Below, piece after piece: positions 15,813 to 19,006 of a stretch of DNA of 20,352 nucleotides (its first letter is position 1; each line of letters opens with the position of its first letter). Origin of the DNA: a virus (taxonomy: Duplodnaviria; Heunggongvirae; Uroviricota; Caudoviricetes). The notes beneath the pieces were generated by a model that did no database searches, was not told the DNA's origin, and saw nothing but the letters and a program-made list of their open reading frames with translations. The stretch is taken from IMG/VR virus record IMGVR_UViG_2534681705_000008, one strand, 5' to 3'. The position numbers were made by a program, and so were the translations under genes.

Positions 15813-18185
15813 TTAATACAGGTTCCGCCACTGATCATCTTCCTGCAAACGCTGGTTCCGATAGAAGATACGCAGGCCTGCTCCTGACGGAATACTGCCT
15901 CCGCGAAGGAGTAAATCGACCTCTTTCTCGCTGCCATCAAATCCTCTGGACTTCAGCTCATACACGAGCTGCAGTCGCTGATGGTCTGTAATTCGCTGTT
16001 TGTAGTCTTTACGCCGTTTCGGTTTCACCAGGCGTAACCTTGCTGCCAGTTCCCGGCGCTCTTTTTTGCTCATACTGTGCAGGTATTCGTGCAACTCCTT
16101 GTCATCCATGCTGGTAATGTCCGTTCTGGGGTCCCCATCAGCTGATTTATCTTTCTCCTGTTGGTTCAAATTTTCAGCAAGGGGACAGTTATTGCCACGA
16201 GTCCAAGGGGCGCAAGCGCCCTGGTCGGCTGCCGCCTCCTGAACATCAACGGCCTTACGAACCATTTTCCACTTCACGGCATGAGTGCAGATCTTGCCCT
16301 CTGCAATAGGTGACCAGATGCCATAAATACGAATGCCGTGATCGCCATAGGCGGTCGGCTCTTCGTTGATTTCATAAGCGGTTCTGATGAGGTGATATTT
16401 GCGGGGAACCAGTACGCCGCCCTGCTTCATGATGTAGGTGGCAAAACAACCAGCATCAGCAGCAGCCAGGATGGCATCAAGGCGCGGGTTATCCAGTACC
16501 GGCGCACCTGCTTTTTTGTCCCCCTGTTGCCTTGCCGCCTGACCAGCCAGCAATCGCAGTTCACGGTAAGCCTGACGCCCCGGAATGCCAAAGAAGCGGA
16601 ATTGCTGAACACGATGCAGAGACGCCCAGGCATTAACGTATTCAGCATTATCACGCAGGGATTTCCCCGTTTCCTTGCTGATCTCGCCAGCCAGACCACG
16701 CCCGTCAATGTTCTTACTGATGTATTTCGCGATGTAGCTTGTTGGCGTACCTTTGCGCGGGTTAATCAACTCAGACTTAAAGCGCGGCCCAGTGTTATTG
16801 CCCAGTTCCTCGCGGTCTTCACGGATGGCAAACTTACGCAGTAATGCAGTGATGGCGCGGCGGTCTTTTTTGCGCATAAAACACAACAGGTGCCAGTGAA
16901 CTGTACCGTCATGATGCGGCTCAGCCACCCGCACGCCATACCACCGCAATCCGGCTTTGTGCATCGCCTTACGAAATGCAGCAAACATGCCGACCAGATA
17001 ATCACTGCTTTGTCTTACCGTCGCATTTGTCCAAGTTGGGTTGGGCCTGCCATTATTTAGCGTGGAATGGAAACGTGACGGACAGGTGATGGTGTAGAAA
17101 ACGGCGCAGTCACCGCGCATTTCCGCGATAAGCTCCAGGCCTTTAACACAGGCCATCATCTCATTGCGGCGATGCGCAGGGTTGCTGCTGCTGGCGTTTA
17201 CCACATCCTCCATGTCCAGCGTGTCGCCGTCTTCGTTCACCAGTTCATGAGAACGAAAAAACTCCAGCGACTTACGGCGCTGCTCACGTTTATGCATCAC
17301 GGCTTCATAGCTGACATAGGGAGATGCTTTTTTGCTGACCAGGCAGACAGCACGCAACTGCTCTTCCCGCCATTCGCAACGCATCTTCCATAATTTCCGG
17401 TACCACCAGTCAGCGCACAACATACGCGCCAGCGAACCCGGAATGAGTTCATAGGGCACGGGTTTACGGCGGTTTCTTTTCCGGCGGAGTTGCTCAAACG
17501 CAGGCGGGATGACATCCAGACGCAGGGTTTCCGCTGCCACCTTTTCCCATGTCTTGCGGATTTCTTCTGGCTTAACGTCATCGGTGACATACAAATCGCC
17601 ACAAGCTGCATCAAGGCACATGCTCATATGCGCAGCTACCAGGGTGGACAGGCGTTTCACCTGATCCTGACTCATTTCAGGCAGGATCAGCAGGCCGTCC
17701 AGCCCTTCATGGCTTGCCATAAAGCGAAAAGAAGTGGATAGCTGACAGTCGCGTACATGCTCCAGCCGTTCCAGACATGGCTTAATCGTCTCACGCAAAT
17801 AGCGGGAATAAGCCTTTGGCCTGCCCAGGCTGCTGAAGTATTCAATACGTTGCATCAGTGGCTTGCTGATATGGGAAGGCTGGGCATTAACGTCCGCCAG
17901 AATGACCATATCTGGATTAAAACGCTGCTGCTCATGCGCCAGCTTTGCCCGACTAATGAGCTTATCCTGCTCCATTTCGCGCTGGACAGGATCACGGGAT
18001 TCATTAAAGAAATAACGCTCCCAGACCTGATCACTCAGTGCCTCGCGGCGCAGCTGTTCCTGCTCGTTATCGGCAGCGTACAGAGCGATCAGGTTTGAAA
18101 GCGCAGAAACTGAAGATTGCTCTTCCGTCTCTACGTAAGGATTGATTGCTTTTTTCTCAGCATTCCAGGAATAGCTGTAGTTCAT
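15813..18185 (-). CDS. A: Replication initiation protein A (rolling-circle HUH endonuclease, P2 gpA family)
   Basis: HUH-type motif [13 protein letters not shown] and active-site tyrosine motif [12 protein letters not shown]; the ATG at 18185 overlaps the stop of the upstream gene (TAATG); the track ORF extends to a TTG at 18236. Confidence 0.95.
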
Positions 18186-19006
18186 TACGCAATCTCCAGT
18201 TCGAGCTGTGAAGGCTGCAAACCATTCGACAGCCAATCAGAAACTGAAGGTGGGCGAACAGCTTCAATTGCACCTTTTAAAATTGCGCAACGGTTTTTCA
18301 GAATGACAGCTTTCAGCTCCTTTTCCGTCAGATTGCGCGAATACTCAGCCTCCTGAATAGCCCGCGTCAGCTCAGGATATTTGCTATTAAATTTGGGGAC
18401 ATTGCAGGCAAGATTTGTACTGTCGGCAGTCGCCAGTGGGTAATTTCCCAACACACGACCGTCAAGCATGCGCAAACCATGAACAGCTGTTTTGAAATTG
18501 TGTCGGCAATAAATTGCTTCAAAAGCGTCCTGCATACGACGATGCCAGTGCGCAGTTCTGATAGCCGCATATTCACCAGACGATCCAAAGCAGACACGAG
18601 GCCATTCACGACATAGCTCGATAAGCCGATCGATTGACTCGTGCAGATGCCAGACGGGAGTTGCCTTCCCGTAGAACATTTTCGGAACTTCGTTTATCAG
18701 GGCATCATTGTCACGTTCACCTCCGTCCACAACATCAGGAATGACAAAAAAAGCGACCTTAGGATGGTGGTAATAGTTCAGGAGCCATTTATAAAAATCA
18801 CTCCAGTTAATTTTTAGCCCACGCACCCATGCAGAAAATGCGCCGTTATCAATGCCGACGACCTGAGCGTGCTGAATGGACGCCGCAATCTGATCTGGTC
18901 GTACATAGGAGACGAAAGCGCCAGCTCCGCTCACCGCAATACGATGAACGTCGCCAGCACTTCCCCAGACAGGCGTCCCATGGAAATGATGAATTCCGTG
19001 GTGCAT
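18185..19006 (-). CDS. Hypothetical protein, early/replication operon (function unknown)
   Basis: 273 aa from the ATG at 19006 (a GTG at 19015 is an alternative start); tightly packed between dam and A; no domain recognised by eye. Confidence 0.5.

Follow-up and report, generated by a model that had tools for sequence, protein, structure and literature searches.

A gene overlapping the start of replication gene A in a P2-like prophage of Escherichia coli is assigned by sequence to the phage DpdA family, singleton clade

Introduction

What is the function of the small protein encoded immediately upstream of replication gene A in a P2-like prophage? The question is raised by a stretch of viral DNA of 20,352 nucleotides (nt), IMG/VR record IMGVR_UViG_2534681705_000008, which is called the window in the following, at its full length. 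The right part of the window, read from the minus strand, corresponds to a P2-like prophage's early region, and it contains a gene for a protein of 273 amino acids (aa), placed between dam, a DNA adenine methylase gene, and gene A. An earlier note, made from the letters of this DNA, had described the protein as uncharacterised and had suggested from its neighbours a role in DNA metabolism or DNA modification. We report here that the gene, as judged by its sequence, is a member of the phage DpdA family, where it falls in the singleton clade; the family is a known one and is already catalogued. The gene and its junctions, all on the minus strand, are the following:

18185..19006, minus strand: dpdA-like gene, 273 aa from its ATG, homologue of the "singleton" phage DNA-guanine transglycosylases
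19013..19015, minus strand: alternative in-frame GTG start (open reading frame 19015..18185, 276 aa), forming a GTGA overlap with the dam stop
18183..18187, minus strand: TAATG junction, dpdA stop over gene A start, translational coupling
15813..18185, minus strand: replication gene A, rolling-circle nicking endonuclease, 790 aa (Pfam Phage_GPA, E 4.5e-128)

Results

Sequence comparisons place the protein in the phage DpdA family

The window protein was matched by PHROG 887 (phrog_887, "queuine tRNA-ribosyltransferase") at E 7.5e-96, a value close to the 8.2e-96 obtained with the DpdA of phage CAjan, and the same PHROG also takes in the DpdA of Salmonella phage 7-11 and proteins of HK106 and Tbat1_6. 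A family profile was then made of 58 diverse relatives, 28 to 59% identical. CAjan DpdA aligned with this profile at a probability of 98.8% and E 9e-17 (hhalign), and the alignment paired LDNGAFS with LDSGAFS and SADST with SCDSS, as well as residues H120 and H176. Among individual phage proteins, the DpdA of Pantoea phage vB_PagS_MED16 (gp38, AZS06278.1) is 55% identical to the window protein over the full length (E 1e-106), SEN1 gp38 (YP_009217891) is 75.7% identical and occupies the same slot, over the start of A, and the DpdA of phage 7-11 is 35% identical. The PHROG match, the alignment with CAjan DpdA and the identity with MED16 DpdA all support the DNA-modification role that the earlier note had suggested. 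When all 1.84 billion cluster representatives were searched with HMMER, only 556 clusters were matched at E ≤ 1e-3, with a conserved core extending approximately from residue 7 to residue 204.

Scans of the window protein against Pfam and NCBIfam gave no match at E ≤ 10, and the PADLOC scan gave none either. Sequence searches of the PDB, whether made with the single protein, with a profile of close homologues or with the 58-sequence profile, returned chance coiled-coil matches only; CAjan DpdA is likewise without a PDB sequence match. The phage collection gave no megablast match to the gene, and the relatives were recovered by tblastn. The silence of Pfam, NCBIfam, PADLOC and the PDB sequence searches accounts for the label that the gene bears in RefSeq, where the identical coding sequence of 822 nt is a "hypothetical protein" (WP_001420002.1) with a DNA adenine methylase and a replication endonuclease on either side. 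To call the protein uncharacterised was an overstatement, as RefSeq phage records of SEN1 and SW9 name their proteins queuine tRNA-ribosyltransferase, and SEN1 gp38 was listed among the DpdA-only phages in 2019 (Supplementary Data 1 of Hutinet et al. 2019, PMC6884629).

The family profile was also compared by hhalign with the sequence of E. coli tRNA-guanine transglycosylase (TGT; PDB 10FA over residues 2-375). The result was not significant (1.6% probability), a single-sequence template making this a weak test, and it is no contradiction to the links with TGT, from structure and from a published HHpred result, that are described below.

A predicted TIM barrel with invariant residues on its catalytic face

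The AlphaFold2 model, obtained with a 40-sequence alignment, reached a predicted local distance difference test (pLDDT) of 90 and a predicted template modelling score (pTM) of 0.86. It is a (beta/alpha)8 TIM barrel of eight strand-helix units, followed by a C-terminal helical tail. The earlier note had offered a TIM-barrel DNA-modifying enzyme as a loose guess, to be checked by structure prediction and profile comparison. The guess was right: the model is a barrel of the tRNA-guanine-transglycosylase superfamily, and the profile comparison led to CAjan DpdA. The best matches of the model among solved structures are Cap10, bacterial DpdA and archaeosine TGT, Cap10 being the top match in Foldseek. 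Among predicted viral structures, 32 matches were found at E ≤ 0.001. These include every named phage queuine tRNA-ribosyltransferase listed, mycobacteriophage singletons being among these, and a protein of Vibrio phage nt-1; the others are mostly unnamed.

Six residues, D53, D91, H120, H176, D195 and S196, are invariant in the 58 sequences, down to 28% identity, and all six stand at or just past the C-terminal ends of the barrel strands, where a TIM barrel has its catalytic face. The D-x-G-x-F motif of the general acid/base is present, with D53 invariant and F57 nearly so, and its segment IDNGAFS aligns with LDSGAFS of CAjan. The residue that follows the general-base Asp differs, DN in the window protein versus DS in CAjan and 9g. 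At the nucleophile position, the invariant pair D195-S196 is aligned with CDSS of CAjan. D53 and F57, by their spacing, and the terminal D195 correspond to D95/F99 and D256 of bacterial DpdA (bDpdA), the alanine mutants of which are dead (PMC10164549). For the base-recognition residues of bDpdA, D130 and H181, the candidate counterparts are the invariant D91, H120 and H176. The window protein ends about 78 residues past the nucleophile Asp and contains no Cys cluster; it has no counterpart of the Zn subdomain found in TGT and bDpdA, and neither do CAjan DpdA and Cap10.

The gene is under purifying selection and linked to gene A

The 273-aa open reading frame is real and under selection, not a chance frame. 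As the earlier note had described, it overlaps the start of A and lies closely behind the dam stop: the dpdA TAA (18187-18185) and the ATG of gene A (18185-18183) have one base in common, and the dam TGA (19014-19012) is followed by a 5-nt spacer and then by the dpdA ATG at 19006. Many dpdA homologues are called with 276 aa, and the GTG at 19015 and the ATG at 19006 are both candidate starts. The exact gene is carried by 102 of 5426 complete E. coli genomes (approximately 2%).

To describe its surroundings, 89 loci with relatives of 58 to 100% identity were collected, 80 on viral contigs and 9 in genomes. An intact dpdA was found in every one of them. With pN, the nonsynonymous divergence, at 0.09-0.29 versus a synonymous pS of 0.69-0.86, synonymous sites being saturated, selection on dpdA is strongly purifying. 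Gene A lies directly downstream of dpdA in 85 of the 89 loci, and belongs to either of two lineages, a P2-type one (74-100% identical) and a divergent 186-type one (30-38%); in the P2-type loci, it starts 0 to 6 nt from the dpdA end. Upstream, dam is found in 53 loci, and a DUF5405 gene takes its place in 24. The link of dpdA to gene A is therefore conserved, and the link to dam is optional. This makes the argument that the earlier note drew from the adjacency of dam a weak one, dam being missing from 36 loci and truncated in the window, and gene A being the conserved neighbour. A functional dam-dpdA module was rejected on the same count, since the loci lacking dam have DUF5405 or nothing at that place.

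One predicted fusion protein joins the two genes. P0011 (421 aa, from one Logan assembly contig) matches D12 adenine methylase (PF02086) in its N-terminal part, and its residues 193-421 are 100% identical to residues 45-273 of DpdA. It is either a dam-dpdA deletion fusion or an assembly artefact.

The insertion of a modified base requires a precursor. In E. coli, the pathway leading to 7-cyano-7-deazaguanine (preQ0) is encoded by folE, queD, queE and queC. The loci were searched with neighbour proteins and with the FolE, QueD, QueE, QueC and YhhQ-like proteins of CAjan, and no homologue of these five CAjan queries was found in the window or within 8 kb in the 89 loci. In the proposed reaction the base must therefore be supplied by the host. 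The absence of precursor genes in cis is what defines the published "DpdA-only" group; it is compatible with membership in the DpdA family and does not exclude it.

A few exceptions to the usual gene order were seen, none of them P2-like. In a lambdoid prophage (locus L012), the order is O, DnaB, NinB, dpdA, RusA, and in HK106 the dpdA homologue lies near xis and int. In the Flyfo siphovirus Tbat1_6 (locus L005, 3525-4783), a 61%-identical DpdA is encoded directly downstream of a PF02592 YhhQ-family gene for a putative transporter of 7-deazaguanine precursors. PF02592 is the family of the E. coli importer of preQ0 and preQ1. Since Tbat1_6 is without preQ0 synthesis genes, its arrangement suggests a salvage-only route to modification.

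Comparison with characterised systems

Pantoea phage MED16 resembles the window gene in several respects: its DpdA is of the same singleton clade, it has no preQ0 genes, and it encodes an adenine (N6) methyltransferase. Of the 7-deazaguanine genes, MED16 encodes dpdA alone, and its DNA contains dADG, the nucleoside 2'-deoxy-7-amido-7-deazaguanosine, at 354 per 10^6 nt (approximately 0.13% of G), traces of the deoxynucleoside of preQ0 (dPreQ0), and N6-methyldeoxyadenosine (PMC8306585). The closest viral relatives of its DpdA were reported to be the SEN1 and SW9 proteins, and HHpred linked it to Thermotoga maritima TGT at 99.2% (PMC8306585). Unlike the prophage of the window, MED16 is a lytic siphovirus, its gene does not adjoin a replication initiator, and the evidence from MED16 concerns the phage as a whole. 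The C-terminal helical tail of the window protein is also slightly longer than that of MED16 DpdA.

The Salmonella phages SEN1 (gp38) and SW9 (gp39), which are 186-like (Eganvirus), have a protein of about 75% identity whose gene occupies the corresponding slot and extends over the gene A start, in SW9 through ATGA. They differ from the window by a DUF5405 gene upstream instead of dam, and by an A of the divergent 186 lineage, 36% identical. Phage 7-11 DNA contains dADG at 50 per 10^6 nt (PMC6884629).

CAjan and 9g DpdA1 are validated DNA insertases of preQ0. Deletion of dpdA in CAjan abolishes all dPreQ0, and 9g dpdA alone, expressed in E. coli, leads to dPreQ0 in plasmid DNA (PMC6884629), which means that a phage DpdA can draw on the preQ0 of the host. 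Like the window protein, these enzymes belong to PHROG 887, are compact (~270-310 aa) and lack the CxCxxC zinc motif. They differ by their context: FolE, QueD, QueE, QueC and a preQ0 transporter adjoin dpdA in CAjan and 9g, where 25-32% of G is replaced, whereas the window has no such genes in cis, and in the related singleton phages at most 0.13% of G is modified.

More distant relatives of the fold were considered and set aside. Bacterial DpdA, from the Dpd island of Salmonella Montevideo (PDB 7UI4), is a protein of 413 aa with a large Ins8 and a structural Zn site, and it needs the DpdB ATPase; bacterial Dpd is a host restriction-modification system in which DpdC makes dADG (PMC10164549). 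None of these partners is found at the window gene, and membership in bacterial Dpd was rejected, as there is no Zn site or Ins8 and no PADLOC match, and the neighbours are dam and gene A. Cap10, from type IV CBASS (cyclic oligonucleotide-based antiphage signalling system; PDB 9NTN), is the best structural match and is also devoid of a Zn site, with an Asp/His catalytic pair. It shares 10% identity with the window protein and acts with the QueC-like Cap9 and a CD-NTase (a nucleotidyltransferase resembling cGAS and DncV) on a protein-linked nucleobase. CBASS membership was rejected as well, in view of the lack of a QueC homologue near the 89 loci, the absence of a PADLOC match and the phage early operon in which the gene lies. 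Bacterial Tgt (PF01702), finally, has an N-terminal lid, a Zn subdomain and tRNA-binding elements, all missing from the window protein. A bona fide tRNA TGT was rejected: Pfam and NCBIfam gave no match, hhalign remained at the 1.6% given above, and neither a Zn-binding CxCxxC...H motif nor tRNA-binding elements are present.

The copy in the window lies behind an interrupted dam gene

In the window, the gene upstream of dpdA is no longer complete, as shown by these two features:

19012..19582, minus strand: 3' remnant of the phage dam gene, residues ~88-284 of 284, the window lacking the 5' part (tblastn with an intact Dam)
19583..20352, plus strand: left end of IS2, inserted in dam and containing a nested transposase gene of the IS110 family, which begins at 19804 and runs off the window

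The dam remnant matches positions 99-253 of 253 of the Pfam family MethyltransfD12 (D12 methyltransferase). Because dam is cut by IS2 with the nested IS110-family element, expression of dpdA is doubtful in this copy. The two elements separate the region of the early promoter from what remains of dam, from dpdA and from A, and we infer that the operon is probably poorly expressed or silent. The co-expression of the protein with a DNA methylase, claimed in the earlier note, thus stands for the intact relatives, but not demonstrably for this copy, where dam is a 3' remnant cut at 19583.

The left end of IS2 at 19583 begins with TAGACTGGCCCCCTGAATCTCC, and the sequence diverges from IS2 about 115 nt further on, just upstream of the expected orfA start. 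The transposase of the IS110 family (DEDD, "RNA-guided") has its ATG at 19804. The ~105 nt at 19700-19803, on the 5' side of this ATG, might specify an element-encoded non-coding RNA; an Rfam scan of 15000-20352 gave no match. The junction of the IS2 end with IS110 was found, at a query cover of at least 80%, in only 11 of the 5426 E. coli genomes.

Other cargo genes

A moron of two genes is present at 13200-14851 of the window (minus strand), between the portal gene and the DinI/A region, a typical hotspot for cargo in P2. It encodes a 304-aa protein with a weak HipA_C-like match and a 246-aa HIRAN-domain protein, and the pair matches the candidate defence system PDC-M03 of PADLOC (A, E 2e-122; B, E 7e-93), the mechanism of which is uncharacterised. 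In an intact relative, a prophage at about 936-950 kb of the E. coli RM10466 sequence NZ_CP028381 (locus L002, 10563-12296), genes for an AAA-family ATPase and a DUF4276 protein lie between the cI repressor and the integrase; these look like another defence-type cargo pair.

Discussion

We consider it likely that the gene encodes a minimal phage DpdA devoid of a Zn domain, from the "singleton" clade of gamma-proteobacterial phages, which would insert a host-made 7-deazaguanine into phage DNA. In an intact prophage, dpdA is part of the early (replication) operon and its translation is coupled to that of gene A, so that DpdA would be made while phage DNA is replicated. TGT and DpdA act by double displacement: one Asp is the nucleophile, giving a covalent ribosyl-enzyme intermediate, and another activates both guanine as it leaves and 7-deazaguanine as it comes in (PMC10164549). 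On the model of TGT and bacterial DpdA, C1' of the target deoxyguanosine would be attacked by D195, and D53 would serve as the general acid/base; guanine would leave, and a 7-deazaguanine made by the host, preQ0 or its amide ADG, would go in. ADG could be put in directly, or preQ0 could be hydrated after its insertion. During lytic growth, a few guanines of the newly replicated phage DNA would be exchanged in this way, the product being dADG and/or dPreQ0. At the rates seen in 7-11 and MED16, a genome of ~33 kb (66,000 nt) would receive between about 3 and 23 marks. For marks so sparse, anti-restriction is the default suggestion, but one that the MED16 data do not support.

Several points weigh against a base-inserting DpdA. 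No experiment exists on the window protein or on any P2/186-like phage; a full-text literature search found no paper joining queuine tRNA-ribosyltransferase and P2-like phages. The Pfam TGT model, NCBIfam and PDB sequence searches are silent and the hhalign comparison with E. coli TGT is not significant, so that the link to TGT rests on intermediate phage DpdAs, on structure and on the published HHpred result for MED16. In the active site, the CAjan alignment sets D91 opposite a Ser and D94 opposite an Asp, and the equivalence with the base-recognition Asp is ambiguous. The base in MED16 and 7-11 is dADG and not dPreQ0, and we know of no converting enzyme in these phages. The dADG of MED16 gave no evident protection against the restriction enzymes tested (PMC8306585). 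DNA of the mycobacteriophage Orion, which has a singleton DpdA, is without any modification, in a host without the preQ0 pathway (PMC6884629).

The example of Orion, which keeps its singleton dpdA though neither phage nor host can make preQ0, speaks for a relative of DpdA that inserts no base at all: a DNA glycosylase, a DNA-binding factor for A-dependent rolling-circle replication, or a dispensable passenger. So does the strict linkage to gene A, with overlap of start and stop, in 85 of the 89 loci and with two A lineages. We regard such a protein as unlikely. Against it speak the strongly purifying selection and the invariance, in 58 sequences as distant as 28% identity, of the whole catalytic set, D53, D91, H120, H176, D195 and S196. 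A part in A-dependent replication would account for the close coupling to A, though not for an invariant transglycosylase active site. The pairing of the Tbat1_6 relative with a YhhQ-family transporter moreover ties the clade to 7-deazaguanine bases. P2 and many P2-like phages replicate without a dpdA gene.

It is very unlikely, in our opinion, that a TGT-fold enzyme acts here on a target other than DNA, either in Cap10-like binding or transfer of a protein-linked 7-deazaguanine, possibly as a counter-defence against QueC/TGT-based immunity such as type IV CBASS, or in base exchange on host tRNA. Only the structural ranking and the low levels of modification point to a Cap10-like role, and the higher score of Cap10 may merely reflect the likeness of two compact barrels without a Zn domain. 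All 89 loci are without a Cap9/QueC-like or CD-NTase gene within 8 kb, and PADLOC is silent. The profile affinity of the family is to CAjan DpdA, a validated DNA-modifying enzyme that is itself without the CxCxxC zinc motif, and two phages whose singleton DpdAs are related to the window protein contain dADG in their DNA.

A variant of the base-inserting DpdA deserves mention, although we hold it to be improbable. The singleton DpdA of P2/186-like temperate phages might set a few dADG marks, made from host preQ0 or ADG, at particular positions such as the neighbourhood of ori or cos, and these would act in replication, packaging or discrimination of self from non-self rather than in bulk anti-restriction. 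Such a role would explain why dpdA overlaps the start of the nicking initiator A across two divergent A lineages, and also why substitution in the related singleton phages is as low as 0.02-0.13% and brings no protection against restriction.

We conclude that the window gene is a new, previously unannotated member of the known singleton phage DpdA family, and not a new kind of system. The assignment fills a gap in annotation, as about 2% of the complete E. coli genomes carry the gene as a "hypothetical protein" that no Pfam or NCBIfam model detects. With the present gene, a singleton DpdA is found in a P2-like phage of E. coli, a setting that is genetically tractable since queC, queD, queE, queF and tgt of the host can all be deleted. 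It is a convenient system in which the questions posed by DpdA-only phages may be addressed: which base is inserted, which host precursor it comes from, at which sites, and to what benefit.

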